Shown: positions 4,045-48,068, counted from the stretch's first letter. The stretch is 64,000 bases of DNA from Bacilli bacterium (GCA_050953065.1 JBMNLZ010000003.1:1-64000), one strand, 5' to 3'. The notes: generated by a model not told the origin, from the letters alone. A program made the numbers and translations.

Positions 4045-6876
4045 TTAATTTGTAGGCATTGTCGCTGTAGTGCCATATGCAGTTTTTAAAACTCCTGCTT
4101 CTAAATACGTAATATATGGTTTTGCTCTCCATGCACTTGTTGCATAATCTTCTTTCTTTATAATAACAAATTCATTATCACTAGAGTAATTATAAGCTCT
4201 AATTTTAGTTATATCACCTGAATTAAGTGTAACCTCATGAGTACCTACATAAAAAATCATTCCAACATCTACCAATGTACAGCTTGTAGGGATATAAAAT
4301 CCACCTGCTACAAACAAATATCCAGTTGTTGTATTTTTAAAATTATGATTTATATAAACTCTTGGAGAATTTATTTCACTAGATGATGCAGTAATTGCAG
4401 TAACCGTAGTATTTTTATATAACGTAATAGCAAAATCTCTATTAAAACTAGCTACCTGACCATTAACAGACCAATATTTAAAAGTTGCATTATCTGATTT
4501 TAATCTTACTGTTTGGTCATATTGTGCTGTACTACCACCTACAGCATAACCTTGCCCAACAAGTGTTACACTATAATTAGTTGTATTCGTTTTAGCATAT
4601 ACCGCTTTAATGATGGTATGACCTTGAATATTTGACAACGATCTTGACCAACCATTAAAAGCATAACCTGGTTTAATCAAATTCGTTAAATTCGGAGCAG
4701 TAGCATTTCCTCCCCTTGGAACATTTTCATATTTTAAAATGTCATTATTGCTATCTAAAAAGACAACATATTTAAAATTTGAATTTCTAGGGAAACAATA
4801 TGCTGTAAATTCATGATTATCAGTTAGCCTAAATTTATAAGGATGATTAAATGATACTAACTTTCCTTTATCAGCTAAAAACAAAAATTCATATCCTGAA
4901 TTAGGTGTTACAGTAAGTTTGCTTGCAGTACCATAAGCACCACTTGAAACCGTAATATTATGAGTTCCATTCATAGTCTGACAAGTTAGACTATAAGTTT
5001 TATTAGAAACTACAATTGATACATTTTGAGAAACAGAAGGCGTTACAGTTGAAGTTGCTGTAATTATAGCAGTTCCTTGATTAACTCCGGTAACTACTCC
5101 GCTACTATTTACTGTAGCAACACCAGTATTACTACTACTCCAAGTTACCCCTTGACCTACACCTGCAGGATAAACTGTAGCCGTAAGGGAAACTGTTTGC
5201 TGAGGATTAATCCCTTTAGCGCCAGTAATTGTAATTGAAGTTGCTGCTAAAGGTGTTCCAGTTGAGATAGGTCCTACAGTATTAGTCGCTGAAATTGCTG
5301 CTATTCCATAAGTATAATTTACTCCACCATAAATTGTTAAATCTTTGTGATATGTAACATTAGGTCCCACAACAGTTAACAATTCACCAGCAGCACCAGT
5401 AACACTACCTGTAGTAGTTCTATAAATCGCATATTTTCTAGCACCACTCACAGTTGACCAACTCAATTCATTAGAATTTCTAGAAAAGTTTGGAACTTGG
5501 CCTAAAGTAATTGGTGTAGTATTAGCCATTTCAGGAACTAATGCTGCGTAATTCCAAGTATTTTTTATTCCTTGAATATTTCCAGGTAATTTTCCTGCAG
5601 TTGAATTAAAAGACTTATAAGTATATATACACGTTCCTTTTACCTCAGGATGTTTAATAATATATTTTAATTGCTTTGCAGCTTCATTATCGTGAGTCCA
5701 CCCATTCGCACTAGTTGCCGCCATATAAAGTCCCATACCAGCATATAGATTGACCTTTTTATTTTTAACAACCTTAGCCCACCAATCAATAACATCAGCA
5801 AATTTACAATGACTATCTTCAAAACCCCAATAAGATTGCGGTACGATATAGTCAATCCATTCACTATCAATCCATCTTTTAGTATCTGCAAACAAATAAT
5901 AATTGCGGTGTTCTTGTCCTGACGTATTAGAGCCATTACTTTGATAAGTTCCATTAGCATCATAAGTAGCATTCATCGCACCATTATAAGTATTATTAGC
6001 AAAAACACCAGTTGGAGAAATTCCAAGTTGAACTTTTCTTCCATTATTACTATTATAAGTTCGCATTGTATTGCTTAATTCTTGAATATACAAACTTACC
6101 TGTTCTCTTCTCCAAGGGTCTCTAGTATATCCATTCGGATTATACATAGCCATTGTAGATGCATCATCTACACCAGCTATATAAAAGTAATCATCAAAAT
6201 GAACCGCATCTACATCATATTTTTGAATTACTTCCATTACAGTATTAATTAAATACGTTCTAACATTAGGAAGTCCTGGATTTAAAATTACACCGCTTGT
6301 TCCTAAAAGCAAGTTTGAAGTAGAACTAGCAGGATTAGAAGGACATGATGCATATCTAGATGCAATAGTATTTAAATCTACAGCTGAAGTTTCAACTCTA
6401 TAAGGATTCATCCAAGCATGAAATTCAATTCCTCTTCTATGGCACTCGCCAACTAACCACTCAATAGGATCATTTCCAGCCGTTGGAGTAAAACCAATAT
6501 ATGTAGATTTTATATTGTATTGTGAAGGATATAAAGCATCGTTCTTAATTCTAATATGAAATACCAAAGCATTCATATTATATTCTTGCATTTTATTTAA
6601 AACAATATTCATCGCATTTTGGAAAGTAGTCATAGAAGAACCTAAAGATACATCACCTGCAAAAGGCGAAACCCACAAACCTCTAAAATCATATCTTTGT
6701 TGCTCATAAACATCAGGAGTATAAACTTGATTAGTTGTGTTTCTATATGTAATATTAGTACCGCTTGAAGAAAGCAAAGGAACTAAGTTAAAAGCATTAA
6801 CTTCTACCTTAACATTAGTCATCATTAACACAAAGCACAGGATAATCATTAGCGATAATATTCTTTTTAATTTCAT
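4045..6876 (-). CDS. secreted GHL10 (DigH/YddW-like) glycoside hydrolase + FN3-like + 1 Big_2 + InlB-B-type repeats + C-terminal unknown domain (paralogue A)
   Basis: Signal peptide; FRGLWVS, EFHAWMNPYR, LNPG, HFDDYFY, WIDYIVPQSYW motifs; WSSSNTGVATV Big_2 motif; KPGYAFNGW repeat motif. Confidence 0.9.
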   Translation of the reverse strand: MKLKRILSLMIILCFVLMMTNVKVEVNAFNLVPLLSSSGTNITYRNTTNQVYTPDVYEQQRYDFRGLWVSPFAGDVSLGSSMTTFQNAMNIVLNKMQEYNMNALVFHIRIKNDALYPSQYNIKSTYIGFTPTAGNDPIEWLVGECHRRGIEFHAWMNPYRVETSAVDLNTIASRYASCPSNPASSTSNLLLGTSGVILNPGLPNVRTYLINTVMEVIQKYDVDAVHFDDYFYIAGVDDASTMAMYNPNGYTRDPWRREQVSLYIQELSNTMRTYNSNNGRKVQLGISPTGVFANNTYNGAMNATYDANGTYQSNGSNTSGQEHRNYYLFADTKRWIDSEWIDYIVPQSYWGFEDSHCKFADVIDWWAKVVKNKKVNLYAGMGLYMAATSANGWTHDNEAAKQLKYIIKHPEVKGTCIYTYKSFNSTAGKLPGNIQGIKNTWNYAALVPEMANTTPITLGQVPNFSRNSNELSWSTVSGARKYAIYRTTTGSVTGAAGELLTVVGPNVTYHKDLTIYGGVNYTYGIAAISATNTVGPISTGTPLAATSITITGAKGINPQQTVSLTATVYPAGVGQGVTWSSSNTGVATVNSSGVVTGVNQGTAIITATSTVTPSVSQNVSIVVSNKTYSLTCQTMNGTHNITVSSGAYGTASKLTVTPNSGYEFLFLADKGKLVSFNHPYKFRLTDNHEFTAYCFPRNSNFKYVVFLDSNNDILKYENVPRGGNATAPNLTNLIKPGYAFNGWSRSLSNIQGHTIIKAVYAKTNTTNYSVTLVGQGYAVGGSTAQYDQTVRLKSDNATFKYWSVNGQVASFNRDFAITLYKNTTVTAITASSSEINSPRVYINHNFKNTTTGYLFVAGGFYIPTSCTLVDVGMIFYVGTHEVTLNSGDITKIRAYNYSSDNEFVIIKKEDYATSAWRAKPYITYLEAGVLKTAYGTTATMPTN

Positions 6877-6937
6877 AAGTTTAAAACCTCAGCATTAATA
6901 TATTCTGTATATAAAACTATACTTGAAACTCTTTATA

Positions 6938-6966
6938 ATTATACCATAAACTCAAGTTTTTTTAAA
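6938..6966 (-). promoter_or_regulatory. promoter of GHL10 paralogue A
   Basis: TTTAAA-17 nt-TATAAT with extended TG (TGGTATAAT). Confidence 0.6.
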
Positions 6967-6979
6967 CACTTAATTTGGA

Positions 6980-7027
6980 AAAATAAAGGGCTTTACCTTT
7001 AGTTTAAGATAACTAAAAGAAAAGCCT
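6980..7027 (-). terminator. probable terminator after lysC
   Basis: Long imperfect stem ggcttt..aaagcc followed by TTTATTTTT. Confidence 0.6.
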
Positions 7028-7030
7028 CAA

Positions 7031-8484: not shown

Positions 8485-11400
8485 TTACGAAGTTTTTATG
8501 AATGTCTTTGTATCCCACAATGAATAACCTCTCATGCCAGTCACCTGACAATAATAACCTGTACCACCATATTGATGAATTATATAGTGATTGTCTCCAA
8601 CTTTTCCTAAATACATCATAACATGCCCACTCATTAATAGAATAGCTCCCATTCTAACATTTTCTAATAATGAATAGTTAGTGCCAATATTATAACTTGG
8701 ATATACCCTTGCATAATTACTAGCAGTTATTAAAGATTGTTGTGAAGTATTTCTTGGAAGTAAGAATCCACAAACCTTATATGCAGCCCAAATTGTTGAA
8801 GAACAGTCTCTATCAGCATTTAAGTCTCCCCAACCATATGGTTGACCTAACATCTTGAACATTTGTTTAACAACATTTCTTGTTGTATATGGTAAATATC
8901 CAACGCTAACATATTCATTGCTATCAATTGGAATAGCCACACTAGTTCCAGCAGTAACAAGTTTTCCGTTATTATTTCTTCTTGTAGGTACTCTTATCGT
9001 AGCAGAACTTGAAGTACTTGAAACTAAAGGTAATCTTACCCCCATTCTTAATTCAGTTGGAAGGCCTGTTATTTGAGTCGTTTTAATTCTTTCAGCCGTA
9101 ATTACAGCAAAATCAGTAGAATTAGCATAACTTAACATATCTGCAGCTGTACATGTTCCTACAGTTGTTGTTGGAATCCAGCCAAAATAGTTTTGACTCC
9201 TTACAAGCAACCATGTAGTACTATATTTACCATAAATAACCACTCCTTCTCCAACTTCAAGTCCTGTTTCAATATAAGATGTAGCAGTTGAAGTTGTAGG
9301 TTCATTTTTCATAAGTGCAAACGATGTAACAACAGCATATTCAGCAGTTGTAAGGCGAGTCCAACTTGAACTTTTAAAAGGTTCTTTATTAGTATAACCA
9401 AACTCACTAATTAAAGCATCGCATTGAGCAGTAGTAATTGTAGTTATTTGAGCTAACGCAGTAACACTAATTAATCTCATATTTCCTTGATTAATCATTG
9501 TAGTATTTTGTGTAGCAATTTCAGCAGGAGTTAATAAAACTTCATTAATATTTAATCCTTCATTTAATGCCTTACCTAACCAATAGAATGGATTTGTCAT
9601 TTCTTGAGTTGCAGGACTACTGTATGTTGGATTAGAACCAAATGTAATTAATTTATCATATGGTTCGGTGCCACTAACATAAATAGTAACAGTTCCTTCT
9701 ACATTAGGATCAGCAGCTAAAGTAGCTGTAATTGTAACAGTACCTGCCGCTTTAGCTAGAACTAAACCACTACTATTAACAGTTGCATAACTAGTATTAC
9801 TACTTGCCCAAGTTACAGCATAACCACCTTCAACTGATGCTTGAGTAGTAGTATATGTTGTAAGATTAGTTTGTCCAGCACTAACAACTAAAGTAGTTGG
9901 AAGTGGTCCAGCCCCATATGTTGCAACATCAGTCCATTTTGCATAATACATTGCAGCTGGAGCAACTCCTGCAGCAATACTTGTTATAGGACTTCCACTA
10001 AAGCTAGAATTATTATACCATCCTTCAAATACATATCCTTCTCTAAATGGCGCCTTCAATACTGCAGTTTGTCCTTGCAAGTAAGTTGTAATTTGATAAG
10101 TTGTTGCAGTAGATGTAGTTCCATCAGCACTCCAATATAGGGTAGGAGTTGCTAATTGTTGTCTTAGATTTAAGTAACTACCACTTCCATTTGATTGAGA
10201 TCCATAGAAATATGCATCTAGAAGGAATCCAGCACCCGATTTAACTTGCTTCATAGTTGTCGGATCAGTAGATGTAATTGATGGATAGGCAGTAGTTAAA
10301 TATAAATTTACCAAATGAATCAATACATTCTGATATTTACTCTTATAAGGTTCTGTTCCAAAGAATCCACCAGTGGCAATTGTTCCTGAAATTGAATCCC
10401 AGAAGAATTGTGAATATCCATCAGTTGCACCATAAGTTCCAGTAGATGTACAGTTATAAAGAGCAACTGGGTCAGTTTGAGCAGTACTAAATCCTGCCCA
10501 AGTTGTTGTTTGTAAAGATGTTGCAACAATTGAAGATGTTAACAAATTATTATCTTTCAAGTATTGATAAAAATCTTGCATAAAGATTTCAGGTAAATTT
10601 GAAACTCCATCCACATAATAACGTCCAGCCCAAGCACCTGATTGTATAGTACCAACAGTACCTGTTGTCCAAGTCCAAGAACCATTATTTAATGCATAAT
10701 TAATCGTATAAGTCGAAGGAGCTCCACCACTCCATTTTGCATAAAGTGTAGTTGTACTTGAAACACTCGTAACTGGCGAACCGTTAAAGCTTGCATTATC
10801 ATACCAACCTTCAAATGTAGCACTAGACTTATTAGGTGTTGGCAAACTTGTAACTGGTGCACTATAGTTATACGCAGTTTTTTCTATATATGTGCCAAAG
10901 CAACCGTTAGCATTAGAACTAATCGAATAATCCGCAGCAGTTCCAATAGCATCGCCTCTTGCTGCTAAAAATGCCCATGTTTCCCATCTAGGAGCAGATG
11001 CTTGAGTTAACGGATCATGAGTATTATTTAATATTTTTTGAAGTTCAGCAACATTATCAGTATGAGCAACAGTTATTAAATATTCAATCATCCACATCCA
11101 TTTATTTTTATAACTAGCATGATTAAAGAAATTACCTACATTTCCTGCATTTGCATAGTTTCTGCCAATATAAGCAGTTGTGCCATCATAGCCAGCATCA
11201 CCACTTTGCAATAAACTCATACGACTTAAACTAGCTCCAGCATTAGCATTATAGAATGCTGTAAAGTCATCTAGATAATCATTTACCATATCTTCTCTTG
11301 TTTCATACACCCAATAACCACCATTTAAATTATAAGTAATAGTGAAATTATCCTCTGTAAAATACGCTACAAGTGTGATATTTGAAGTTACAGGAGTATT

Positions 11401-14400
11401 AAAGTTATATGTACTTCCATTTAATCTCCACTCAACAAATGTATATCCACTCTTAACAGGATCAGTTGGTTTAGCAACTGTTGCTCCAGAAACCACAGTT
11501 GAAGTTGTATAAGTATTTCCATCTACTGTAAATGTAACTACATAAGTTGTATTTAATGTAAAATATGCAGTAAGTGTAATATTTGAAGTTACAGGAGTAT
11601 TAAAGTTATATGCACTTCCATTTAATTGCCATTCAACAAACGTATATCCAGATTTTGTTGGGTCTGCTGGTCTAGTAACCATATCTCCTGAATTTACGGT
11701 TGAAGTTGTATAAGTTGTGCCATCTACTGTAAATGTAACTGTATAAGTTACAGTTGCCTCAAAATATGCTACAAGTGTAATATTTGATGTTACTAAAGTA
11801 TTAAAGTTATAAGCAACACCATTTAATCTCCACTCAACAAATGTATATCCACTCTTTACAGGATCTGCTGGTTTAGTAACAGCAGTATTAGAATTAACAG
11901 TTACATTATTAGTTACTCCATCAACATTAAAAGTAACTACATATGTTTTATTAAAATCTCTAACTTGTTCTAAAGCAAAAGTTGAGCCAACTGTATAACC
12001 AGTATTAAATCCTAGTTGCCTATCTAAATATTTAGTAACATATAAAGCTTGTCCTTGAGATAGTGTAATACCTGTTTGCCCATTATAATAAACCCCTAGA
12101 ATTTCTCCATCAACATCTATTTTTACAGCCACTTCATTGGTTACATTTTCACCATTAAAGGCTGTACTATTAAAATTAAATGTAATAGTGTTTGCATTAG
12201 TTGATGTATTTCTAATCACGTTACCACAAGATTTATAGATTACGTCTTGGGCAGCCCAAATTGCTGCAAACTGAGAATCAGTATACGTAGTATTGCTTGA
12301 AACAGAAATATTAACAAGATCCTTAACCAAGAATAGTACCGCAGTATCACTTTCTCTAGTTAAAGTCCATCCATTCCATTCAGTTGCACCAACCCCAGCT
12401 GAAACAGAATTATAATGTTTCTTAGTATAACCATCCGGCAAAATTCCAAAGTTAATTTGTTTTGTAGCTGTATGGCTATTTAGCGTTCCTTTAATAGTCC
12501 TATAAGCAGTATCTAAACTATAAACTGATTTGTAAGCACCTGATGCTATATCAAACAAATCCTCATTTTCTCCAGTTTGATAAGCCCAAGTAAGCCCTGG
12601 ATAAGTTGGGAATGCGTAGTTTGCTGGAATATGGTTTGGTAGGGATGCAACCATATTAGCAAGTAACTCACTATCTGATAAAGCTGCTTGATATGTAACA
12701 ACATTACTATATTTATAATACACATTACTATTATATAAATATGAAACATAAGTACATGCGTTCCACTTTTGAGTAGACAATACACCACTTAAAGAAACTG
12801 CAAATTCATTATTGTTTGTTGCGATTAAACTTCTAATCTTGTTAACTCCAGGAGTTGCAATAGTTAAACCGCTTTCTAAATTACCTTGATATATTAACAT
12901 TCCCTTTTCAATTAATGTATAGTCCTCTGGCAATGAATACGCACCCACAAAAGATAAAAATCCATTTTCTATTTCAGTATCTATTATATTAGGTGAAATG
13001 CTTGCAACTGGTTCTTCTGCTACTGCTCCACTTAAAACAGCAGTTACAGTTTCATCACCATATACTGAAAAAGTATAACTCAAATCATAACTTACAATTT
13101 CTCCATTCCTCATCCAATAACTAAAAGTTGAAAAAGAATTAGCAGTAACTGTAATTGTACTATCATATGCTGCAGTTACACTTGGAACAGTTCCATTTTG
13201 TATAGTTATAGTATATATATCACTAACATTCTTAATAAAAATCGGCAAAATAATTAAGTCTTCAGTTACATTATTATATGCTTCACTCCAATGACTAAAA
13301 GTATAGCCTTGTTTTGTAGGAATAAGACTTGTAGAAGGCGCACTAACACTAGCACCACTACTACAAATTTCTAAACTTAAAATATTTCTATTTTGATCCA
13401 TAAATAACACATAGTGCATATTATTTGGAACAAAATAAGCTTTATAATTTACATCACTATTAACTTTAAAAGCATATGTTGTTTGAAAACTGATAACTTT
13501 ATTATTTTCAGCTAAGAATAAATATCTATAGCCAGAATTTGGACTAACTAAAATTGAATTTGAACTTCCATAAGTAGTATCATAATTACTCTTAGCAATC
13601 GTTCCGTAACTACTATTATTTACAGAAAGATTAATATTATAATATGTAACTCCAGCTAGTCCATTAACAGTTATTTCGTGAGTATCAAATTTATCAGGAT
13701 TTGAAACTGACGTTGCAGTAATAGTTACTGTCCCAACACCTACTGCACTAACTAAACCGTTTGAAGACACAGTAGCAATTAAAGGATTACTACTTTGCCA
13801 GTTTACACTTGTATTAGTCGCATTACTAGGTAATACTTCTACAGATAACTGTAAAGTATTATTGATAGTCATGCTTGTATTTCCAGATATAGTTACACTA
13901 GTAACAGCAACTGAAACTATTTCAATTTGTTTTGAACCATAAACTGATCCATTTAAAGTTGAAGTCGCTGTAATTGTTGCAAGCCCAGTTGCAACTGCAG
14001 TTACTTTACCAGTTTGATCAACTGTTGCAATATTAGAATTACTTGATGACCAATTTACATCTTGGCATGTATAACTTGGTAAAGCAGTTGCTGTAAAATT
14101 AGTTGTGCTTCCAATTTCTAAGTAATTTTCACCAGTAACAGAAATTGAGTTTGGAGCCATTGTTGTATCAATAACTGTAACACTATGAGTATCTACAATA
14201 CTTCCATCAGCAGCTGATGCCGCAGAAATATTAACAATCCCACCAGAAACTCCAGTTACTTGGCCTAATTGATTGACTGTGGCAATACTTGTATTAGCAC
14301 TACTCCAGACAACTGCTTGATTAGCATTCACAGGACTAACACTAGCCGATAAAGTAATAGTAGAATTTTTATTCACTTGGTTTGCACCAGTTATTGAAAC

Positions 14401-17400
14401 CGAAACTGGTGGTGCATAATTTACTGCTATTTCTTTTGTTCCATAAATATTTTCATCTAAAGCTGATTTAGCAGTAATAATAACATTACCAACATTAACT
14501 CCAGTTACAACTCCACTTGAAGAAACTGTAGCAATACTTGTATTACTTGAATACCAATTTACATCTTGACTAGCTGAACTAGGTAACGCTGTAGCAGTCA
14601 AAGTAGTATTACCACCTTTTACAACACTCAATGCACCAGAAACAGAAATAGATGTAGGTACGCCACCAGGCACGGTAAATGTCTTACTATCCATCCTATT
14701 AGTATTAACACTAGAAACACAATTAATAGTAGCAACGCCATACCCTACTGCATTAATTAACCCTTGAGGGGTAACAGTTAAAACATTGGTATTACTTGAA
14801 TACCATTGAACATCATTAATCGCACCAGTCGAAGGTGATACAATAGATGTTAATTGTCTTGTTGTATTATAGTCAATTGTATTAGATGTAGCACCAATTG
14901 CTACTGATGTTACATCAGTAGAACCACTTGGCACATTATTATAAATAATTGAAAAATTATCAAAATATAAAGTTCCACTTATCTTTGGTAATCCACCAAT
15001 AGCAAGAACTCTTATAGCAAAAGTAATTTGACTAGCTGACACAGTTTCAGGAAAAGCAAATTCAACATATCTCCACCCTGTCCAATTTACTGTAGCTGGA
15101 GTAGGTTCAGCGTAAAGAACTGTACCATTTACGTTTAATTGTGAGCGTAAATTAGCACCTTTGCCATCACCATAACACCAAAAACCAAGACCTATTGCTC
15201 CCGGTGTTAATCCAAAATAAGCATTATCATCTATATATCTTCCAACATAAACACCATCAGTGCCAGTAGCATTAAGTAAATTATATGTAACTTTTAAAGA
15301 TTTGCTACCAAATTTTACATAACTTAAATCATTATTTATACTTGCAGTTCCAGACCCATTATTTAGATTTTGAGTTTGCCATACGTTGCTTTCAAAAGGT
15401 TCTAATTTCATAAAATTATTTTGTGAAATTGTAACTTGCATCGTATCATATAGTCCATTTTCTACAGTAGTAGCTGTTATATTAACAACTCCTGGTCTAA
15501 GAGGTACCAACCTACCAGTACTTTCAATAATTGCAATTGTAGTGTCACTAACACTCCAATTATATGTATAAGGATCTCCAGAAAGTGATGAAGCAATATA
15601 TGAATTACTAAAACCAACTTCTGCAGTAGATTCCCCCGAAATTGTAATCGCTTCATTAGAAATTGATAAAATCTTCGTATCAAAAATTGAAGTATCAGCG
15701 GTGCTTCTTGCAGTTATTGTAACTTCTCCTGTTGTTGTAGAATTGGCAGTTACTTGACCAGCTGAGTTTACTGTAGCTAAAGATGTATTGCTAGATGTCC
15801 AAGAAACTGTTTGAATTGCTCCTGCTGGAGAAACAGTAGCACTTAAATTCACTGTTTGTCCAAGTGCCACAGCATTCGGTCCATTAATCGTAACCGAAAC
15901 TGGTGAAGGTCTAGTAACACTAATTACGTGTGTGTCATATATGTTAGTATGAGTAGCACTTCTTGCAGTTATTGTAACTGTACCAGTAGAAACACCAGTC
16001 ACTTTACCAAAAGCATCAACTGTTGCAACACCTGTATTATTACTACTCCAATTAACTGCTTGAGAAGCCCCTGTTGGTGAAACAACAGCAGTTAATTGTG
16101 TTGTATTAGCAATATATAAACTACTTGCTCCGCTAATAGTAACAGCAGTTGCAGGAACAAAAGGAGATTGATATGTTAAAGTGCTTTCAGTATTAGTTCC
16201 TGAAATTGCTCTAATTCCATATCTATAACTTATTCCTTGTTGAGCAGTTGTATCTATATAACTATTAGTTGAAGAACCTACTACTGTTATTAATTCATCA
16301 ATAGTTGAATTAATTGTAGTCCCAGTTGTCCTATAAATTGCATATCTTTTAGCACCAGGTTTTAGGCTCCAAGTTAAATAACTACCATCAGCATAAAAAT
16401 CACTTACTTCTCCGAGATTAACTGCTGTCATAGTTCTTGTTTCTGGAATTAACGATTTATAATTCCAAATATTTTTAAGTTGAGCTATTTTTTGAGAAGT
16501 AAAACTTGTATCACCATCCCTAGCATTTTTTAAATATATATATTTATAAATAAATGTTCCTCTAACATGCGCAAACTGTGTAAGATATCTAGTTTGCATC
16601 TCTGCTTCATAAACATTGGTTCCCCAGGAATAATCCGTTCTTCCAATTCCCATTCCTGAATACAGGTTTACTTTTTTACGATCAACTACTTTTGCCCACC
16701 ATTCCATCAAATCGGCAAATTGTCCTGTAGTATGAGTAAATCCCCAATAAGATTGTGGAGTAATATAGTCAATCCATTCATTATCAACCCATTTTTTTGT
16801 ATCCGCACAAAGATAATATCCATAATGCTCTTGACATCCTGAGTTATTTGACCCATATACTGAATATGTCCCATTTGAATCATATGTCCCGCCAATTGCT
16901 TGGGCTCTACTTGAAACAGTTCTATATACACCTGTTGGTGAAATTCCAAGTTGAACATATCTATTATTATTAGCATTATAAGTTCTAATCGATGTACTTA
17001 AAGAGGAAATAAAAGCATCAATATCAGCACGCTTATCAGCATCTGATCTACCTGTATTTGCTCCACTTGCGTAGAAATAATCATCAAAATGAATCGCATC
17101 AATATCATAATTTTGAATAAGTTCCATACAAGTATTTACTAAAAAATTTCTAACAATCGCTTTACTTGGATCTAATATCAAAAGATTATTATCTGAAGTT
17201 GTTAATAAGTTTGCAGAATTACTTGCAGGGTTAGCTGTCGGATAAGAATAATTATATAATGGTTCTGCTGAAGGATTTCCTACTCTATAAGGATTAAGCC
17301 AAGCATGAAACTCATAACCTTCTTCATGGCATCTATTTACCGCCCATGCTATTGGATCAAATGTATTAAAGTCAATACCATTTGTCCTCCAAGATTTAGG

Positions 17401-17754
17401 GTTTAATGCTGATGGATAAAAAGCATCATTATGTGTTCTAACATGGAACACCATCGTATTTAAATTATAATAATCCATATCATCAAGCAACTCTTCAAAA
17501 TTATCTCTAAAAGTTGCCTCACTTGCAAATGAAATGTCACCAACAAAAGCTGATACCCAAACAGCTCTCATATCAAACTTTTGTTTTTCATAGACATTTG
17601 GAATTTGAACAATAGAACTTGTACCTTTGTAGTATACTGGATTTCCTCCGATATATAAACCAGTCAAAGTATAAGCACCTACTGTCTGAAGCCCAAAATA
17701 CACTGCAAAAACTAATACTATTAAAGACATAAAGATTTTTCTAATTTTTTTCAT
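8485..17754 (-). CDS. giant secreted bifunctional hydrolase: GHL10 + FN3-like + 9 Big_2 + CBM-like + InlB-B repeats + C-terminal SH3-associated NlpC/P60 peptidase (paralogue B, ~3089 aa)
   Basis: N-terminal MRAVWVS/EFHAWLNPYR/HFDDYFY; repeated WSSSNxxxATV; PxKSGYTFVEW repeats; C-terminal LGQPYGWG..RDCSS..LPRNTSQQ..GHVMMYLG..IIH (Cys-His-His). Confidence 0.92.
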   Translation of the reverse strand: MKKIRKIFMSLIVLVFAVYFGLQTVGAYTLTGLYIGGNPVYYKGTSSIVQIPNVYEKQKFDMRAVWVSAFVGDISFASEATFRDNFEELLDDMDYYNLNTMVFHVRTHNDAFYPSALNPKSWRTNGIDFNTFDPIAWAVNRCHEEGYEFHAWLNPYRVGNPSAEPLYNYSYPTANPASNSANLLTTSDNNLLILDPSKAIVRNFLVNTCMELIQNYDIDAIHFDDYFYASGANTGRSDADKRADIDAFISSLSTSIRTYNANNNRYVQLGISPTGVYRTVSSRAQAIGGTYDSNGTYSVYGSNNSGCQEHYGYYLCADTKKWVDNEWIDYITPQSYWGFTHTTGQFADLMEWWAKVVDRKKVNLYSGMGIGRTDYSWGTNVYEAEMQTRYLTQFAHVRGTFIYKYIYLKNARDGDTSFTSQKIAQLKNIWNYKSLIPETRTMTAVNLGEVSDFYADGSYLTWSLKPGAKRYAIYRTTGTTINSTIDELITVVGSSTNSYIDTTAQQGISYRYGIRAISGTNTESTLTYQSPFVPATAVTISGASSLYIANTTQLTAVVSPTGASQAVNWSSNNTGVATVDAFGKVTGVSTGTVTITARSATHTNIYDTHVISVTRPSPVSVTINGPNAVALGQTVNLSATVSPAGAIQTVSWTSSNTSLATVNSAGQVTANSTTTGEVTITARSTADTSIFDTKILSISNEAITISGESTAEVGFSNSYIASSLSGDPYTYNWSVSDTTIAIIESTGRLVPLRPGVVNITATTVENGLYDTMQVTISQNNFMKLEPFESNVWQTQNLNNGSGTASINNDLSYVKFGSKSLKVTYNLLNATGTDGVYVGRYIDDNAYFGLTPGAIGLGFWCYGDGKGANLRSQLNVNGTVLYAEPTPATVNWTGWRYVEFAFPETVSASQITFAIRVLAIGGLPKISGTLYFDNFSIIYNNVPSGSTDVTSVAIGATSNTIDYNTTRQLTSIVSPSTGAINDVQWYSSNTNVLTVTPQGLINAVGYGVATINCVSSVNTNRMDSKTFTVPGGVPTSISVSGALSVVKGGNTTLTATALPSSASQDVNWYSSNTSIATVSSSGVVTGVNVGNVIITAKSALDENIYGTKEIAVNYAPPVSVSITGANQVNKNSTITLSASVSPVNANQAVVWSSANTSIATVNQLGQVTGVSGGIVNISAASAADGSIVDTHSVTVIDTTMAPNSISVTGENYLEIGSTTNFTATALPSYTCQDVNWSSSNSNIATVDQTGKVTAVATGLATITATSTLNGSVYGSKQIEIVSVAVTSVTISGNTSMTINNTLQLSVEVLPSNATNTSVNWQSSNPLIATVSSNGLVSAVGVGTVTITATSVSNPDKFDTHEITVNGLAGVTYYNINLSVNNSSYGTIAKSNYDTTYGSSNSILVSPNSGYRYLFLAENNKVISFQTTYAFKVNSDVNYKAYFVPNNMHYVLFMDQNRNILSLEICSSGASVSAPSTSLIPTKQGYTFSHWSEAYNNVTEDLIILPIFIKNVSDIYTITIQNGTVPSVTAAYDSTITVTANSFSTFSYWMRNGEIVSYDLSYTFSVYGDETVTAVLSGAVAEEPVASISPNIIDTEIENGFLSFVGAYSLPEDYTLIEKGMLIYQGNLESGLTIATPGVNKIRSLIATNNNEFAVSLSGVLSTQKWNACTYVSYLYNSNVYYKYSNVVTYQAALSDSELLANMVASLPNHIPANYAFPTYPGLTWAYQTGENEDLFDIASGAYKSVYSLDTAYRTIKGTLNSHTATKQINFGILPDGYTKKHYNSVSAGVGATEWNGWTLTRESDTAVLFLVKDLVNISVSSNTTYTDSQFAAIWAAQDVIYKSCGNVIRNTSTNANTITFNFNSTAFNGENVTNEVAVKIDVDGEILGVYYNGQTGITLSQGQALYVTKYLDRQLGFNTGYTVGSTFALEQVRDFNKTYVVTFNVDGVTNNVTVNSNTAVTKPADPVKSGYTFVEWRLNGVAYNFNTLVTSNITLVAYFEATVTYTVTFTVDGTTYTTSTVNSGDMVTRPADPTKSGYTFVEWQLNGSAYNFNTPVTSNITLTAYFTLNTTYVVTFTVDGNTYTTSTVVSGATVAKPTDPVKSGYTFVEWRLNGSTYNFNTPVTSNITLVAYFTEDNFTITYNLNGGYWVYETREDMVNDYLDDFTAFYNANAGASLSRMSLLQSGDAGYDGTTAYIGRNYANAGNVGNFFNHASYKNKWMWMIEYLITVAHTDNVAELQKILNNTHDPLTQASAPRWETWAFLAARGDAIGTAADYSISSNANGCFGTYIEKTAYNYSAPVTSLPTPNKSSATFEGWYDNASFNGSPVTSVSSTTTLYAKWSGGAPSTYTINYALNNGSWTWTTGTVGTIQSGAWAGRYYVDGVSNLPEIFMQDFYQYLKDNNLLTSSIVATSLQTTTWAGFSTAQTDPVALYNCTSTGTYGATDGYSQFFWDSISGTIATGGFFGTEPYKSKYQNVLIHLVNLYLTTAYPSITSTDPTTMKQVKSGAGFLLDAYFYGSQSNGSGSYLNLRQQLATPTLYWSADGTTSTATTYQITTYLQGQTAVLKAPFREGYVFEGWYNNSSFSGSPITSIAAGVAPAAMYYAKWTDVATYGAGPLPTTLVVSAGQTNLTTYTTTQASVEGGYAVTWASSNTSYATVNSSGLVLAKAAGTVTITATLAADPNVEGTVTIYVSGTEPYDKLITFGSNPTYSSPATQEMTNPFYWLGKALNEGLNINEVLLTPAEIATQNTTMINQGNMRLISVTALAQITTITTAQCDALISEFGYTNKEPFKSSSWTRLTTAEYAVVTSFALMKNEPTTSTATSYIETGLEVGEGVVIYGKYSTTWLLVRSQNYFGWIPTTTVGTCTAADMLSYANSTDFAVITAERIKTTQITGLPTELRMGVRLPLVSSTSSSATIRVPTRRNNNGKLVTAGTSVAIPIDSNEYVSVGYLPYTTRNVVKQMFKMLGQPYGWGDLNADRDCSSTIWAAYKVCGFLLPRNTSQQSLITASNYARVYPSYNIGTNYSLLENVRMGAILLMSGHVMMYLGKVGDNHYIIHQYGGTGYYCQVTGMRGYSLWDTKTFIKTS
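11359..11946. repeat. three tandem ~201-bp intragenic repeats (Listeria-Bacteroides/InlB B-repeat units)
   Basis: Units begin at ~11359, 11560 and 11761 and share long identical blocks, e.g. atatttgaagttacaggagtattaaagttatatg and tttaatctccactcaacaaatgtatatccactc. Confidence 0.9.
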
Positions 17755-17799
17755 AATGACGCCTTCTTTCAATTTGTATTTATTATTTTTCGCATAACA

Positions 17800-25427: not shown

Positions 25428-25540
25428 AGTTAATCCTTTCATAAAAAGAACATTCTCTATTGTTATTATAGCATATTTCAAGTATTAAAAAAAGCAAAAT
25501 AAATAGTTTTTAAAATGGCTTAAGATTTGTCTTAAGACCA

Positions 25541-35353: not shown

Positions 35354-36973
35354 TTAATTACTATGATCTATTATTAAATTACCATTACTATCAACATCAT
35401 AAACATCTATAATCATAGCATTTAGAACATTATTATCTAAAATTGAATAACAATATATTCTTACAGAACCTTTTGAATGTCCTGTAATAACACCATTGTT
35501 TACACTCGCAACTTCAGGAGTATCACTTCCCCAAACAACACCTTGATTTGCACCAACTGGGTCAGTAGTTATTGTCCATGTAACTGTTTGATTAACTCCA
35601 ACCTTATCTGGTCCATTAATCATAATTGATTCTGGAGTACTTCCAGTTGAAGGAGAAACTGTAATAGTTATTTGACCTTTAACATTTGTATTAAGAGTTG
35701 ATGTTGCAGTAATTACTACAGTCCCAACACCAACAGCTGATACTCTACCACTACTGTTTACAGTTGCAACACTTGTATTACTACTACTCCAAGTAACTGA
35801 TGTTGAAGCATTGCTCGGAGTGAAAGATATTGTTAAGTTTAATGATTGATACACATCCAAACTATTTGCACCACTTAAAGAAATTGATGTTGGTGCTATA
35901 GTATTACCACTTATTGATATATTATGTGTCTTTTTTACATTAGTATCTTGAGTTGATGTTGCAGTAATCACAACGGTTCCAGATTGTAAAGCTGTAACTA
36001 TACCATTACTATTAACTGTAGCAATCATACTATTACTACTAGACCAACTAACTCCTCCGCTTGAAACATCAGCAACCAAAGTGCTTTGGCCACCTACCAC
36101 CATAGTAGTAGGGCCTACTATTTTAATTGAAATTCCACTACCGCCAGCAGGTGTTACTGTAACAGTTATAACATCGAAAGGTTTTATTTCTTCTGTTGTA
36201 TTGTATGTTGCTGTAATATTTGCAACACCAGGCGAAACAGCTAATAATGCTCCTGTTGTTTGATTGACAGTAACAACACTTGGATTACTTGTGCTCCATT
36301 TAACTCCTCCAGTTGTTGAGGCTGGTACTAAAACAAATTGTAAATTTTGAGTTTCACCAACCGACATGCTTTCCGAACCAAATATCGTTACCGTAATTCC
36401 TCCATCAGATGTAGGAGTTGTAACAGAAATTTCTACTGTTGTAGATATACTTGAATCAATTTTAGAAATTGCTGTAACTGTAGTTTTTCCAAGTTTAACT
36501 CCAGTTACCAAACCAGTTTCAGAAACTGATGCTATACTAGGGTTACCAGTTATCCATTGAACAGCATTGCTTGCTCCAGTCGGAGTCGCTTGAATTGTAA
36601 GCTGTAAAGTTTTATTCATTTCTACACTTCTAGCATTTTTTATTGTAATACTTTCTAAAGTGTTAGAAATAACAATTATAGTAATGCTATCTTCTGCTTG
36701 AGAAAGTACATCTGTAGCTTTAATTATAACAGTTCCCGGAGCTATACCCAAAACTTGACCTTGTGCATTAACAGTTGCGATTTGAACATTCATTGATTCC
36801 CACGCAATATTTCTTTGACTGCTAACACCACTAATGCCTAAAGTTATTGTCCCACCTACTAATAGTCCCGAACTAGGTGCATTTGTTATATGTAGACTAG
36901 TTGCTTTTTTACCACAACCAGCTATACCAAACATAAGTGTAAGTATTAATACTAGTAGTATAGTTCTTTTCAT
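35354..36973 (-). CDS. lipoprotein composed of six Big_2 Ig-like domains
   Basis: IAGC lipobox; six units with W-x-S/T-x-N/T..A/V-T/S-V..G motif; no catalytic domain seen. Confidence 0.9.
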   Translation of the reverse strand: MKRTILLVLILTLMFGIAGCGKKATSLHITNAPSSGLLVGGTITLGISGVSSQRNIAWESMNVQIATVNAQGQVLGIAPGTVIIKATDVLSQAEDSITIIVISNTLESITIKNARSVEMNKTLQLTIQATPTGASNAVQWITGNPSIASVSETGLVTGVKLGKTTVTAISKIDSSISTTVEISVTTPTSDGGITVTIFGSESMSVGETQNLQFVLVPASTTGGVKWSTSNPSVVTVNQTTGALLAVSPGVANITATYNTTEEIKPFDVITVTVTPAGGSGISIKIVGPTTMVVGGQSTLVADVSSGGVSWSSSNSMIATVNSNGIVTALQSGTVVITATSTQDTNVKKTHNISISGNTIAPTSISLSGANSLDVYQSLNLTISFTPSNASTSVTWSSSNTSVATVNSSGRVSAVGVGTVVITATSTLNTNVKGQITITVSPSTGSTPESIMINGPDKVGVNQTVTWTITTDPVGANQGVVWGSDTPEVASVNNGVITGHSKGSVRIYCYSILDNNVLNAMIIDVYDVDSNGNLIIDHSN

Positions 36974-37659: not shown

Positions 37660-38117
37660 ACGGCAACACCCATCTTAGAAGCAATCAATTTAAATAATGC
37701 TACTAATTGAGTTAAACCTAAGTCAACAACTAAAAAGAAAAGTGACATAATTAAAGAAAACACAAAAACTGTTACACTGTTTTTAAGTAAAACCCCTTTG
37801 CTTGGCCATGAAATTCTCTTAATTTCACTAATTGAAGGCTTATAAAACGGCCAAACTGCTAATAATAGTGACACAGCACCTAAGATAATTAAAATCCAAG
37901 CAAATACTTTTGGATAGTCTCCAATTAAAAATACATCATCTTTAATTACTAAACCACTAGTACCAGTGTTTTCACCAACAATTATTAAAATTCCTAAAAC
38001 TATTGCTATTAAAGATAATAACAACAGAATTAATCCTTCATATTTATATTCTTTAGTAAGAATAGTTAAAATCTTATTTTCTTTATTTTCTTTTTTTTCT
38101 TTTTTTTCGGCAACCAT
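37656..38117 (-). CDS. secE: preprotein translocase SecE (long, three-TM form)
   Basis: SEIKRISWPSK motif before the last TM; lies between rpmG and nusG. Confidence 0.93.
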   Translation of the reverse strand: MVAEKKEKKENKENKILTILTKEYKYEGLILLLLSLIAIVLGILIIVGENTGTSGLVIKDDVFLIGDYPKVFAWILIILGAVSLLLAVWPFYKPSISEIKRISWPSKGVLLKNSVTVFVFSLIMSLFFLVVDLGLTQLVALFKLIASKMGVAV

Positions 38118-44606: not shown

Positions 44607-44635
44607 ATTATACTATTATTAAGTGTTATTGTCAA
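44607..44635 (-). promoter_or_regulatory. sigma-A promoter of rplM-rpsI
   Basis: Perfect TTGACA-17 nt-TATAAT. Confidence 0.9.
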
Positions 44636-44671
44636 TATTTAAATTTATAATTTTGCTAGAAAACCTATCAT

Positions 44672-44702
44672 AAAAAAAGATGCACAAGTTAATGTGCATC
44701 TT
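44672..44702 (-). terminator. terminator after amidase gene
   Basis: aagatgcaca/tgtgcatctt stem plus T tail. Confidence 0.9.
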
Positions 44703-44714
44703 CTATTTATTTGT

Positions 44715-47700
44715 TTACCAATTCCATTGCCCAGGAATAATACTGTAAAGAGTTACAGATTTTGAGTAAGCGCCTTTTTCAACTTTAATAGTATAACTTA
44801 CTACAGTTGAATATCTAGGAATACCAATAACTCTACCAGTATTACTTACCAATTCTGGATTATTGCTTGTGAAAGTAATAGTATAATCGCTATAATTTTT
44901 AGCAATATAATATTCAGCCTCAACCAATTCATAGAAATTATTTAACAAATTATTATCTCTCATAGTTTGAGGGCAATTCTTACCACTAAAGAAATTATGA
45001 GGTTTAACTCTACTTGGATCTATATTATTAGTAAGTAATAATTGCGCAATTAATTTAGCAGTTTTTTGCCAAGTTAAATATAAATCTGAACCTTGGTTTA
45101 CCATTGTTTCAATACCAATACTATTTCTATTTCCACCACCATTACCAATATATCCAAAGCTTGAACTATACCAAGTTCTACCTATATAATAATTACCATT
45201 TTCTCCAATTACAGTATGAATTCCAGCCGGAGTTATTTTTGAAGTCGGTAAAATTGCACCACCATTTGTAGGAGCAGCTAAAGTTGATTTTTGGCCATTA
45301 AACTCCCAATATCCATCAGCACTAATTGTAATTGTTGGATTTGGACCTGATGCAGGAATTCCTGTATCTGTTAATTGATATGTTAAACTGCCATCTCCTG
45401 CATGATAAGCTACTTCATCATCTGGAATTTGATGATAAATTCCAGTATCGCCAGCTGAATAATGCCAAGAAGTTCCACCACCACCATTATAAACATAATT
45501 TGCATGCATAAAAGCGTCTGCAGTTGATGCTGAGGATGCTGTATCATGAACAGTAATATATTCAACAGAAGTCATTTTTGTTCCAGGTCTATTATCATTA
45601 GTCAATGGTGCTATTCTTTCAGTAATCGTGTTTGTACCAAACCAATATTTTGAAACACTTCCATAAATGTCTGCGTAATATACAAATTGATAACCTGTAA
45701 CTTTTGCATTCTTATAAAGTACATTACCTTCATTTATACTAATTAAATATTCTAATAAAGCATCTGCTTCTTCATAATTTGGTAATACAACTACTTCAAC
45801 TGTCATTTTTATTTCACCATCAGCACTTGATGCAACCTTAATAGTTGCAGCACCTTCAGCAACGCCAGTCACAAGTCCAGTCGAATTAACTGTTGCAATA
45901 CTTGGATCTTCACTTGACCAAGCAGCATTAGCAGTTGTAGGATATACTGTTGCTTGTAATTGAATAGTTTCACCAACCTTTATAGTTCCATGTCCTACAG
46001 TTCTAATTTCAACTCTATCAACATTAACAACAGTTAGTGTCATAGTGGCTTTAACTTTATTATCCGCCACAGAAGTAATTGTAATTGTAGTAGTTCCTAA
46101 TTTTTTAGTATTGATCTTACCAGTTTGGTCAATTGTAGCTACATTTTCATTGCTACTTTCAAAAATCATTCTTTTATCAAATGCTTCATTTGGAGCAATA
46201 TTAACATTTAGTTGATATTCATCATATCCTTCAAGTTCACTTACAGGATTAGATATTGTTATTTCTGTAGGAAGCACAGCATCGCCCCATTTCGCATATA
46301 AAATTTTATTTCCAGTAGACCCTGCTGGTAATGCTACCATTGGTTCTCCTGTAAAGTCGGCATTATCATACCAACCACCAAATACAAATCCTGGCTTAAT
46401 TGGACTAGTAAGAGAAATTTCTGAACCAGTATTAGTATATTTTAAAACTGGAATTCCATTGAAATATTTAATTACATTAGATGTTTGCCATCTTGTTTTA
46501 TTAAATAACTCACCCATTCTAATTCTAGCAACAAAGTATCCGCCCCAGAAAGTTTGAGCTGGATTAACTTTTGTAATTTCAACATCAAGCACTTCAAAGA
46601 AATTTAACCATTTTGAATTATATTCAACTTGATTAATAAAGAAATTAGAATTATCAGGTAATTTTTGATTAGGTGAGAACATTTTTTGGAATGTTGCTTC
46701 AACATACCATGCACCTTTTGTATAATCTCCTCCTACAGCTTTAAATGCTTGGAAATCACTTGTTAAGCCTAAATAATTATAAAAATCACGTAAGAATTCA
46801 TCTGCAAGTTGTTCAACAGTATCATATTTAATATCTCCACCATTCATTATATAGCTAATTGAATATTCACCAGCTCCCAAACTTGCTGCACTAAATTTAG
46901 CGTATAGATTTACATTTGCTAAAGTAGTAATAGCAGTAACTTTGTTTGTAAATCCTGCTTCAGTATACCAGCCATCAAAAACACAACCTAATTTAGCTGC
47001 CTTTGCTAAAGATAGTGGTAAATCACTTTCAGAAAACTCAGTTAGATTTGAACCATCATTTACACCATCATTTAATGTATATGTAATAGTATAAAGATCT
47101 TCAAATTTAGCATATAGTGTAATTGATGTAGTACTAGGCACTTCTAAAACATCAATTCTTGAACCATTAAAGCTTGCATTATCATACCACCCCGCAAATT
47201 TCTTGCCATCTTTTGTTGCAGGAGCTAAAGCGTATGGAAATTGTGAATAACCTACACTTGTAAGATTAGCAGGATCGTTAGTTCCTTGATTTAATTCATA
47301 ATTCAAAGTATATTTGTTCTCAGTATATTTTGCATATAATACTTTATCGCCAATTGATTTAATATGAGTAACTTTATCACCAGTAAAGCCTTCATTAGTA
47401 TACCAACCATCAAATGTATAACCTTGCTTTACAGCATCTTCTAAATAAATATCTAAATCACTTTCAGAAAATGTTGCAGGATTACAACTTGCATTATCTC
47501 CATTATCTAAATGATACACTACATTATATACGATTTCCCATTTAGCATATAATGTTTTGTTCCCAGTACTTCCCGCTACAATAGAAACAACTTTATCACC
47601 TGTGAAGCTTGCATTAGTATACCAACCCGCAAATGCAAAACCATCTCTTGTTGCAGGTTTTAAAATAATAGTCGCATCAGTTGTTTTATATGATGAAACA

Positions 47701-48068
47701 TTTAAAGCGTTATTTACACCATCATTTAAAACATACTGAATTTGATATGTTGTATCAACAACTACAGGATCATTTTCTTGCCATAAAGCATACAAAGAAA
47801 CATTTGATTTAGTCCCTACTGGGATTAAAGTAATCGGATCTCCTGTAAAAGCTGCATTATCAAACCACCCCTCAAAAGTAAATCCTTCTTTTGTAGGAGC
47901 TGAAATTGTAAGCGGCAAGTCGCTCGCCTTAAAACTAGCTACATTACTAGCATGGTTAACACCATCATCCAAATTGTATCTGATTGTATAAGTAGGTTCT
48001 GTTTTTTTACAACCAACAAGTACAATTCCAAAAACTAATACTGAAAATAAAGTTAAAATTTTTTTCAT
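44715..48068 (-). CDS. lipoprotein N-acetylmuramoyl-L-alanine amidase (Amidase_2) with 6 InlB-B repeats and 2 Big_2 domains
   Basis: LVGC lipobox; repeats Y.L..G..P.K.G..F.GWY..LYAK; catalytic motifs YITVHDT, SWHY, AYHAGDG, GNRNSIGIE, VKPHNFFSGKNCP (His/His/Cys Zn ligands). Confidence 0.92.
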   Translation of the reverse strand: MKKILTLFSVLVFGIVLVGCKKTEPTYTIRYNLDDGVNHASNVASFKASDLPLTISAPTKEGFTFEGWFDNAAFTGDPITLIPVGTKSNVSLYALWQENDPVVVDTTYQIQYVLNDGVNNALNVSSYKTTDATIILKPATRDGFAFAGWYTNASFTGDKVVSIVAGSTGNKTLYAKWEIVYNVVYHLDNGDNASCNPATFSESDLDIYLEDAVKQGYTFDGWYTNEGFTGDKVTHIKSIGDKVLYAKYTENKYTLNYELNQGTNDPANLTSVGYSQFPYALAPATKDGKKFAGWYDNASFNGSRIDVLEVPSTTSITLYAKFEDLYTITYTLNDGVNDGSNLTEFSESDLPLSLAKAAKLGCVFDGWYTEAGFTNKVTAITTLANVNLYAKFSAASLGAGEYSISYIMNGGDIKYDTVEQLADEFLRDFYNYLGLTSDFQAFKAVGGDYTKGAWYVEATFQKMFSPNQKLPDNSNFFINQVEYNSKWLNFFEVLDVEITKVNPAQTFWGGYFVARIRMGELFNKTRWQTSNVIKYFNGIPVLKYTNTGSEISLTSPIKPGFVFGGWYDNADFTGEPMVALPAGSTGNKILYAKWGDAVLPTEITISNPVSELEGYDEYQLNVNIAPNEAFDKRMIFESSNENVATIDQTGKINTKKLGTTTITITSVADNKVKATMTLTVVNVDRVEIRTVGHGTIKVGETIQLQATVYPTTANAAWSSEDPSIATVNSTGLVTGVAEGAATIKVASSADGEIKMTVEVVVLPNYEEADALLEYLISINEGNVLYKNAKVTGYQFVYYADIYGSVSKYWFGTNTITERIAPLTNDNRPGTKMTSVEYITVHDTASSASTADAFMHANYVYNGGGGTSWHYSAGDTGIYHQIPDDEVAYHAGDGSLTYQLTDTGIPASGPNPTITISADGYWEFNGQKSTLAAPTNGGAILPTSKITPAGIHTVIGENGNYYIGRTWYSSSFGYIGNGGGNRNSIGIETMVNQGSDLYLTWQKTAKLIAQLLLTNNIDPSRVKPHNFFSGKNCPQTMRDNNLLNNFYELVEAEYYIAKNYSDYTITFTSNNPELVSNTGRVIGIPRYSTVVSYTIKVEKGAYSKSVTLYSIIPGQWNW

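Follow-up and report, generated by a model that had tools for sequence, protein, structure and literature searches.

Exported Peptidoglycan-Degrading Enzymes Predicted in the Genome of a Probably Wall-Less Bacilli Bacterium

Introduction

A stretch of 64,000 nucleotides from the genome of a Bacilli bacterium (GCA_050953065.1, JBMNLZ010000003.1:1-64000), referred to here as the window, carries four genes for very large exported enzymes of modular build. Three of these contain a GHL10 domain, one of the three being fused to an NlpC/P60 domain, and the fourth is a lipoprotein with an Amidase_2 domain. We consider it likely, at a probability of about 0.75, that these four genes are part of a genome-wide exported arsenal which would degrade peptidoglycan and which would be aimed at the walls of other bacteria. 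The original prediction, made from the window alone, had argued that a host without a cell wall offers such enzymes no substrate of its own, so that they should act on other bacteria. This argument is now backed by the missing wall genes of the host and by a complete set of genes for muropeptide catabolism. If the host makes no peptidoglycan, as these findings indicate, only the walls of other bacteria are left as a substrate.

The Four Enzymes of the Window

Pfam and signal-peptide scans agree on four modular exported enzymes with stalks of Big_2 and InlB-type repeats at the positions that had been proposed (Table 1). The Pfam cut-offs have been 27.9 bits for GHL10 (PF02638), 26 bits for Amidase_2 (PF01510) and 23 bits for NlpC/P60 (PF00877). 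All open reading frames (ORFs) of the window with at least 150 amino acids (aa) lie on the minus strand and are open under translation table 11, and the GC content is ∼30%. The true starts are likely inner ATGs, located at 25427 for the 2548-aa gene, at 48068 for the amidase gene and at ∼17754 for the 3095-aa gene. The former two coincide with the starts given originally, and a 3089-aa form of the 3095-aa fusion has been found in a protein collection.

The catalytic motifs, which had been described as retained, are intact in all four enzymes according to alignments to Cwp19 and DigH, to XlyA and to PDB 3m1u. Cwp19 (PDB 5oq2) matches the 943-aa, the 3095-aa and the 2548-aa protein with E values of 1.1e-54, 3.1e-42 and 3.2e-61, respectively. 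The motifs HAWxNPYR, HFDDYFY, GxSPxG and PQxYW are kept in all three GHL10 proteins of the window, in nine of the ten paralogues of the genome and in E. coli DigH. A putative active site of Cwp19 has been assigned to Arg132, Asp195-Asp196-Tyr197, Ser250, Gln295/Tyr297 and Gly328 (PMC5765458), and the three window proteins, as well as 9/10 paralogues, have all of these residues, Gly328 included, in common with DigH. The odd paralogue (C2:484720) is without the DD motif. In a blastp comparison, DigH, taken from the annotated K-12 record, is similar to the GHL10 proteins of the genome with E values from 1e-39 to 1e-61, and 25-30% identity goes with E values of 1e-39 to 1e-53. Regarding the amidase, its catalytic domain matches that of XlyA (PDB 3rdr) with E=6.7e-26 and carries an insertion of ∼80 aa; the zinc ligands His (in ITVH), His (in PH) and Cys (in CP) are conserved together with the Glu of IGIE. 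For the P60 domain of the fusion, the best match is PDB 3m1u, described as a putative gamma-D-Glu-L-diamino acid endopeptidase (E=1.7e-18); the catalytic Cys (in DCSST) and His (in GH) are conserved. Upstream of it, where YkfC and 3m1u have SH3b domains, SH3_6 scores 17.4 bits, the cut-off being 27, and the alignment to 3m1u reaches ∼120 residues before the P60 core. Judged by these alignments, the four enzymes are predicted to act on peptidoglycan.

Among the four enzymes only the amidase has a lipobox, and two matches to Lgt have been found in the genome. The three GHL10 proteins carry type-I signal peptides and lack a lipobox as well as a C-terminal membrane helix. The surface location that had been proposed for the whole set therefore finds support for the amidase (lipobox LVGC) and none for the three GHL10 proteins, for which a signal peptide is all that has been detected. 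Nor can the region from 4045 to 48068 be kept as the locus of a single system, as its extent had implied, because unrelated genes intervene and no operon is formed. An aspartokinase gene lies between the GHL10 genes of the window, and the amidase gene stands ∼19 kb away from the GHL10 genes, the interval being filled with housekeeping genes (recX, prfB, secA, hpf, leuS, nusG, secE, cysS and a two-component pair).

The beta-sandwich module of ∼450 aa, found in both giant proteins, also occupies residues 819-1270 of another GHL10 paralogue of the genome (phmmer; Table 1). It has no Pfam match above cut-off, and its protein atlas score of at most 0.85 points to divergent InlB repeats. Foldseek searches with an AlphaFold model of the module (predicted local distance difference test score 69.7) have returned generic chains of multiple beta-sandwiches, e.g., complement C3, at template-modeling scores of ∼0.2, and no catalytic or known binding fold has been recognized. 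The module may bind either the substrate or the membrane of the producer.

Table 1. Positions of the window features and of related genes elsewhere in the genome. Window positions are counted from the first nucleotide of the window; C2 and C3 denote contigs of the genome.
Feature	Position	Strand	Length (aa)	Domains (N to C terminus where given) and scores
Exported GHL10 protein	4045..6876	-	943	Type-I signal peptide; GHL10 161.7 bits (residues 65-385, nt 5722-6684); one Big_2; Flg_new_2 29.1 bits; divergent InlB B-repeats
Giant exported GHL10-NlpC/P60 fusion	8485..17772	-	3095	GHL10 119.7 bits (nt 16648-17571), 8 Big_2, beta-sandwich module, at least 5 Flg_new, SH3b-like stretch, NlpC/P60 34.2 bits (residues 2976-3067, nt 8572-8847)
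Giant exported GHL10 protein	17835..25481	-	2548	GHL10 149.5 bits (nt 24300-25244), 15 Big_2, C-terminal beta-sandwich module of ∼450 aa common to other GHL10 paralogues; Flg_new only 22 bits in segment scan, under cut-off
Amidase_2 lipoprotein	44715..48122	-	1135	Lipobox LVGC, 6 Flg_new, 2 Big_2, Amidase_2 68.4 bits (residues ∼851-1052, nt 44967-45572)
Module of ∼450 aa, first copy	11974-13329
Module of ∼450 aa, second copy	17838-19181
GHL10 paralogue with the module	C2:478341-482156
Four Amidase_2 lipoprotein genes in tandem	C2:24-38 kb
Amidase gene near contig end	C2:24079-27636
Amidase gene near contig end	C3:565492-569073
Amidase-like fragment	C3:569237-569701		154
Catabolic locus	C3:380.8-418 kb
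GHL10 protein without signal peptide	C3:411797-413101	-	434
LysA-Peptidase_M19 fusion	C3:415869-418058	-	729	TIGR01048 417.5 bits
Big_2-only lipoprotein	35354..36973	-	539	Lipobox IAGC; 4 Big_2 (169.4 bits); no catalytic domain
SecE	37656-38117	-	153	SecE domain only at residues 91-141
Protein without family	55137-59294	-	1385	Signal peptide, hydrophobic segments at 621-668, C-terminal membrane anchor
ORF without family	60978-62303	-	441
ORF without family	3248-3955	-	235

Absence of Wall Synthesis Genes

The genome to which the window belongs (G000) comprises 1,554,579 bp in 3 contigs with 1.2% contamination. A six-frame search of the whole genome has returned no match to MraY (PF00953), to the transpeptidase domain of penicillin-binding proteins (PBPs; PF00905) or to FtsW/RodA (PF01098, the SEDS family), whereas the same models found these families in 12, 10 and 10 of 14 control genomes, respectively. 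The sole gene of the enolpyruvylshikimate-phosphate synthase family is AroA (TIGR01356, 308.7 bits), the murA model reaching only 47 bits where its cut-off is 392.7, and the sole gene of the Mur ligase family is FolC. Genes for MurA, MurC-F, MraY, SEDS proteins and PBPs are accordingly absent from the genome; the genome-wide search did not extend to MurB, MurG, MurJ and Ddl. The division and cell wall (dcw) locus gives the same picture. Directly after mraZ-rsmH, and inside a 344-kb contig, follow a nucleotidyltransferase gene, valS, folC, radC and a YgjP-like gene, and at this position none of ftsL, pbpB, murE, mraY, murD, ftsW, murG and mreBCD has been found.

A wall-less host is well supported by these observations, although at a genome completeness of 93.9% the absence of the wall genes is strong and not absolute. 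A complete pathway of peptidoglycan synthesis, named beforehand as a finding that would overturn the interpretation and make the enzymes ordinary autolysins, was not found in the genome search.

Arsenal and Catabolic Set Across the Genome

With the window included, the genome has been found to encode ten GHL10 genes in all (11 matches), eight Amidase_2 lipoproteins and two NlpC/P60 proteins, and its ten GHL10 genes are the highest count among 61 genomes of the same order, this genome included. The Amidase_2 lipoproteins measure 668-1193 aa, and seven of the eight (1095-1193 aa) combine a lipobox, 7-8 Big_2 domains and the amidase domain; the genes of four stand in tandem. The second NlpC/P60 protein is a lipoprotein of 1209 aa that is 73% identical to the P60 module of the window.

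Two of the amidase genes, both near contig ends, encode proteins that are 99.3% identical. Behind this stands either a duplication of very recent date or a repeat left unresolved, at which the assembly broke. An amidase-like fragment follows the copy on C3 (Table 1).

The genes for the use of peptidoglycan fragments are concentrated in one locus on C3. It encodes MurQ (355.9 bits, cut-off 302), AnmK (320.8 bits, cut-off 24), NamZ (NamZ_N 278.1 bits, NamZ_C 159.7 bits), NagB (307.8 bits, cut-off 236.9), a GH20 enzyme and two NagZ-type GH3 enzymes, one scoring 219.3 bits against a cut-off of 207 and the second, at 204.3 bits, slightly below it. The same locus holds permeases of the ATP-binding cassette (ABC) type, binding lipoproteins, one of them with Big_2, and a PBP4B/AmpH-like protein. 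NagA scores 341.5 bits (cut-off 225.65), and its gene adjoins another GHL10 gene. N-acetylmuramic acid (MurNAc) is found only in peptidoglycan, and the substrate of AnmK is the product of lytic transglycosylases; a wall-less cell has, consequently, no internal source of either MurNAc or anhydro-MurNAc. No MurP of the phosphotransferase system and no AmpG has been identified in the genome, neither having been searched for.

Two further members of the locus merit attention. The fusion of LysA and Peptidase_M19 at its end could convert wall-derived peptides containing meso-diaminopimelic acid to lysine. A GHL10 protein without signal peptide is encoded within the locus, and GHL10 matches of 417-469 aa recur in many of the 61 related genomes. 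A GHL10 in the cytoplasm would work on glycan fragments after their import, a role not described for Cwp19 or DigH.

By a crude hydrophobicity heuristic, ∼109 ORFs of at least 450 aa start with a signal-like segment, 67 of them lipobox-like, and together they make up ∼21% of the coded residues. On this crude measure the exported proteome is very large for a 1.55-Mb genome.

Comparison Across the Order

Among the 61 genomes, a GHL10 match has been found in 55, usually with 3-10 matches each, an Amidase_2 match in 59 and an AnmK match in 51, while matches to PBP transpeptidase and to SEDS occur in 39 genomes each. The 21 genomes that lack both PBP and SEDS carry GHL10 and Amidase_2 in 19 cases each and AnmK in 18. 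AnmK is present in 51 of the 55 GHL10-bearing genomes and in none of the six GHL10-less ones, which belong to three genera and have either no Amidase_2 match or one. The arsenal thus tracks the catabolic kinase AnmK and not wall status, and it is not special to the wall-less members of the order. A functional link between amidase and GHL10, as originally suggested, fits the joint occurrence of GHL10, multi-copy Amidase_2 and AnmK in these genomes.

The wall set of the walled members is itself minimal, consisting as a rule of one SEDS gene and two matches to PBP transpeptidase. PBP-bearing and PBP-less genomes occur side by side in three genera (g6, g10 and g11), which suggests either recent wall losses or incomplete metagenome-assembled genomes. 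A genome of the same genus as the host (G001) likewise has no PBP or SEDS match, and its best GHL10 match is 51% identical. A comparable mixture of walled and wall-less members has been reported for Anaeroplasmataceae, RFN20, RF39 and ML615J-28, in a text whose searched part makes no mention of hydrolases, amidases or recycling (PMC10868615).

Rarity of the Fusion, Selection and Habitat

The SH3b-like stretch together with P60 occurs in 21 of the 61 genomes within proteins of 515-901 aa and is joined to GHL10 only in the host. A collection of 5.8 billion proteins has been searched for the fusion, candidates being chosen by shared 5-residue words, and among 2913 candidates of 1702-5417 aa the sole match to the P60 module has been the window fusion itself. 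The fusion seems to have arisen recently and locally, given that the two P60 copies of the genome are 73% identical as stated above.

Selection has been estimated from paralogues within the genome, the best ortholog in the same genus being just 51% identical. In six pairs of catalytic domains the ratio of nonsynonymous to synonymous substitution rates (dN/dS) is 0.21-0.40, at dS of 0.6-1.0. Two pairs are uninformative, namely the window amidase and C3:432103, with a dN/dS of 0.71 at 46% identity, and the almost identical pair C2:24079 and C3:565492. The 9.3-kb fusion gene has been found in metagenomes of anaerobic digesters, bioreactors, activated sludge and sludge from 12 studies, and two of the metagenomes that match it best may be the source of this DNA.

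A Proposed Route and Its Alternatives

Taking these observations together, the following route may be proposed. Lipid-anchored amidases on stalks of 7-8 Ig-like domains would strip stem peptides from MurNAc, whereupon secreted GHL10 enzymes would cut the glycan strands, probably leaving 1,6-anhydro-MurNAc ends, and YkfC-like NlpC/P60 domains would cut gamma-D-Glu-diamino acid bonds in the peptides. Fragments would be taken up by ABC importers with Big_2-bearing binding lipoproteins and trimmed by NamZ, NagZ, GH20 and the cytoplasmic GHL10. AnmK, MurQ, NagA and NagB could then convert anhydro-MurNAc and N-acetylglucosamine to fructose-6-phosphate and D-lactate, feeding glycolysis, and the peptides would be handled by the LysA-M19 dipeptidase fusion and the PBP4B/AmpH-like protein. 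From sequence we infer every one of these enzymatic steps, the order in which they take place and their role in nutrition.

Several points weigh against this reading. The four enzyme genes of the window do not form an operon, with partner genes spread over three contigs, and a location at the surface is unproven for the GHL10 proteins, since no anchor is recognizable in them. Within the order, four GHL10-bearing genomes have no AnmK match (G007, G014, G016 and G030, the last 60% complete), and a hand count gives a mean of 5.3 GHL10 matches in 35 PBP-bearing carriers versus 5.0 in 20 PBP-less ones; the enzymes of walled relatives could serve their own wall. Moreover, related genomes are not independent, so that the co-occurrence counts are descriptive and overstate the support. 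Both giant genes are matched by short contigs that stem from RNA libraries (3 studies, 4 runs) and for the most part show 0-2 differences; these contigs are no proof of transcription, strand and level being unreadable and uncovered bins counting as no finding. Concerning the family as a whole, the lysis of cells by Cwp19 was 13-66 times slower than that by lysozyme, and the authors of this work questioned whether the enzyme mainly serves to break down peptidoglycan in bulk (PMC5765458). DogH, another GHL10 member, has been reported to be active on starch (PMC9967864), and the substrate range of GHL10 is for this reason not settled.

The latter reports bear directly on the view that only the amidases act on peptidoglycan and that the GHL10 enzymes work mainly on another glycan of the sludge, such as poly-N-acetylglucosamine (PNAG) or other biofilm exopolysaccharide, a chitin-like polymer or an alpha-glucan, the whole being a general foraging set. 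We regard this as unlikely. Besides the hydrolysis of starch by DogH, it could draw on the PNAG enzyme PgaB as the closest fold to Cwp19 and on the slow action of Cwp19 on cells (PMC5765458), on the GHL10 paralogue that lacks the DD motif, and on the many large exported proteins counted by the crude heuristic above, which include phosphoesterases and binding proteins and would suit a broad scavenger. However, the window GHL10 proteins match Cwp19 at E values of 1e-42 to 1e-61 and have every motif that Cwp19 and DigH hold in common, and one of them is fused to an endopeptidase of the peptidoglycan type. A GHL10 gene stands within the MurQ/AnmK/NamZ locus, and AnmK accompanies GHL10 in nearly all carriers and in none of the genomes without it, which speaks for peptidoglycan as the target.

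It is quite unlikely that the enzymes are chiefly bacteriolysins against living neighbors, with feeding as a by-product. Long stalks could reach the wall of a neighbor, amidase, glycan-cleaving and endopeptidase activities jointly can lyse cells, and a wall-less producer would be immune to its own enzymes; a bacteriolytic mollicute, Anaeroplasma bactoclasticum, also lends itself to this view. Yet nothing found separates killing from scavenging, and the complete, conserved catabolic route and a habitat rich in necromass fit feeding. The outer membrane of Gram-negative bacteria would, in addition, shield living prey from enzymes of this size. Whether dead or living cells are the substrate is a distinction that cannot be told from sequence.

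Hardly any credence is left for the view that the genes are autolysins inherited from a walled ancestor and either preserved by chance or turned on a cryptic wall-like layer of the host: walled relatives do have the same gene families, and genera with both PBP-bearing and PBP-less genomes indicate that wall loss may be recent in places, but 10 + 8 + 2 intact genes are kept with the top GHL10 count of the order, catalytic residues are conserved at a paralogue dN/dS of 0.21-0.40, the dcw block is cleanly gone, and the 51% identity to the best GHL10 of the PBP- and SEDS-less congener means a long divergence during which the genes were kept. Two other origins have been rejected. Signal peptides, lipoboxes and stalks, together with conservation in multiple copies throughout the order, speak against prophage endolysins, and evasion of host immunity by amidases resembling peptidoglycan recognition proteins is unlikely given the digester and sludge habitat.

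An exported arsenal directed at the walls of other bacteria, which we prefer, would have consequences for several fields. In digesters, soils and sediments, peptidoglycan has been described as a fraction of bacterial necromass that is slow and rate-limiting (PMC7511781). Its anaerobic degraders are poorly known, and the present gene set would mark a specialized guild of Bacilli that have a minimal wall or none at all. It could also provide a molecular basis for mollicutes that lyse bacteria and for those that are fastest at assimilating dead cells. The repeated loss of peptidoglycan, so far ascribed mainly to host association (PMC10868615), may be seen from a fresh angle. As a tentative idea, with the odds clearly against it, the arsenal predates wall loss and helped to drive the repeated peptidoglycan loss in the order. 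If this were true, surrender of the wall would amount to self-immunity for cells that release glycan-cleaving enzymes, amidases and endopeptidases. The walled and wall-less genera would then be independent steps from a wall-bearing to a wall-less wall-eater, and the GHL10-NlpC/P60 fusion a late refinement that places both cuts on one molecule. For enzymology, very large modular lytic enzymes, one of them both glycan-cleaving and endopeptidase by prediction, represent a natural set for study.

Other Features of the Window

The Big_2-only lipoprotein encoded between the GHL10 genes and the amidase gene may belong to the same building set, in an accessory or a binding role. SecE has an unusually long N-terminal extension. 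No Pfam or NCBIfam match has been obtained for the 1385-aa protein, and no family of either database for the ORFs of 441 and 235 aa (Table 1).

Comparison With Known Systems

MurNAc salvage is familiar from the murQ-murR-murP-amiE-nagZ-namZ operon of Bacillus subtilis and from the murQ-murP operon of E. coli with PBP4B. In the present genome NamZ, NagZ, MurQ, AnmK and a PBP4B-like protein are likewise united in one locus. Known salvage hosts, in contrast, rebuild or recycle their own wall, and uptake is here apparently accomplished by ABC importers with Big_2-bearing binding lipoproteins. As the present host has no wall to rebuild, the pathway can only be catabolic. Anaeroplasma bactoclasticum is a bacteriolytic mollicute; neither its name nor a molecular basis of its lysis was found in the literature searched. 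MurNAc is scavenged by Tannerella forsythia, with salvage by NamZ, AmpG and MurK, and the use of exogenous wall fragments as a resource has been described (bioRxiv 10.1101/2021.12.02.470905, PMC7670621). Closer to the host, Acholeplasma has been identified as the main assimilator of 13C-labeled dead E. coli in slurry (PMC4628116). It represents a wall-less relative that assimilates dead bacterial biomass, although peptidoglycan is nowhere mentioned in this work (PMC4628116). Spiroplasma species carry murP and murQ and thereby share genes of MurNAc catabolism with the host, but their uptake concerns the free sugar only (PMC4607517). No description of an exported arsenal of peptidoglycan hydrolases in wall-less Bacilli has been found in the full-text literature, subscription journals and supplements lying outside the search.

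At the level of the enzymes, Cwp19 of Clostridioides difficile (PDB 5oq2/5oq3) and DigH (YddW) of E. coli belong to the same GHL10 family and share the motifs of the window proteins. Cwp19 is a peptidoglycan lytic transglycosylase (PMC6016235), and DigH degrades glycan strands with a preference for those denuded by amidases (PMC12288456). Both act on the own wall, in autolysis or cell separation, measure 703 and 439 aa, and are anchored by CWB2 repeats or by lipid. The window proteins differ in their size of 943-3095 aa, their chains of Big_2 and InlB repeats, a total of ten copies in the genome, a wall-less producer and one fusion to NlpC/P60. The XlyA/PlyL-type Amidase_2 and YkfC-like NlpC/P60 enzymes (PDB 3rdr, 3m1u) have the same catalytic domains and residues as their counterparts in the host. 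The known examples are small phage enzymes or cytoplasmic or periplasmic ones, whereas in the host these domains stand at the distal end, either in lipoproteins measuring 1100-1200 aa or in the 3095-aa fusion, the amidase with its ∼80-aa insertion. Peptidoglycan scavenging as such is already known; new are the evidence for wall loss that the dcw locus provides, the co-occurrence throughout the order irrespective of a wall, an arsenal of this size and a fusion of GHL10 to P60 that is unique.

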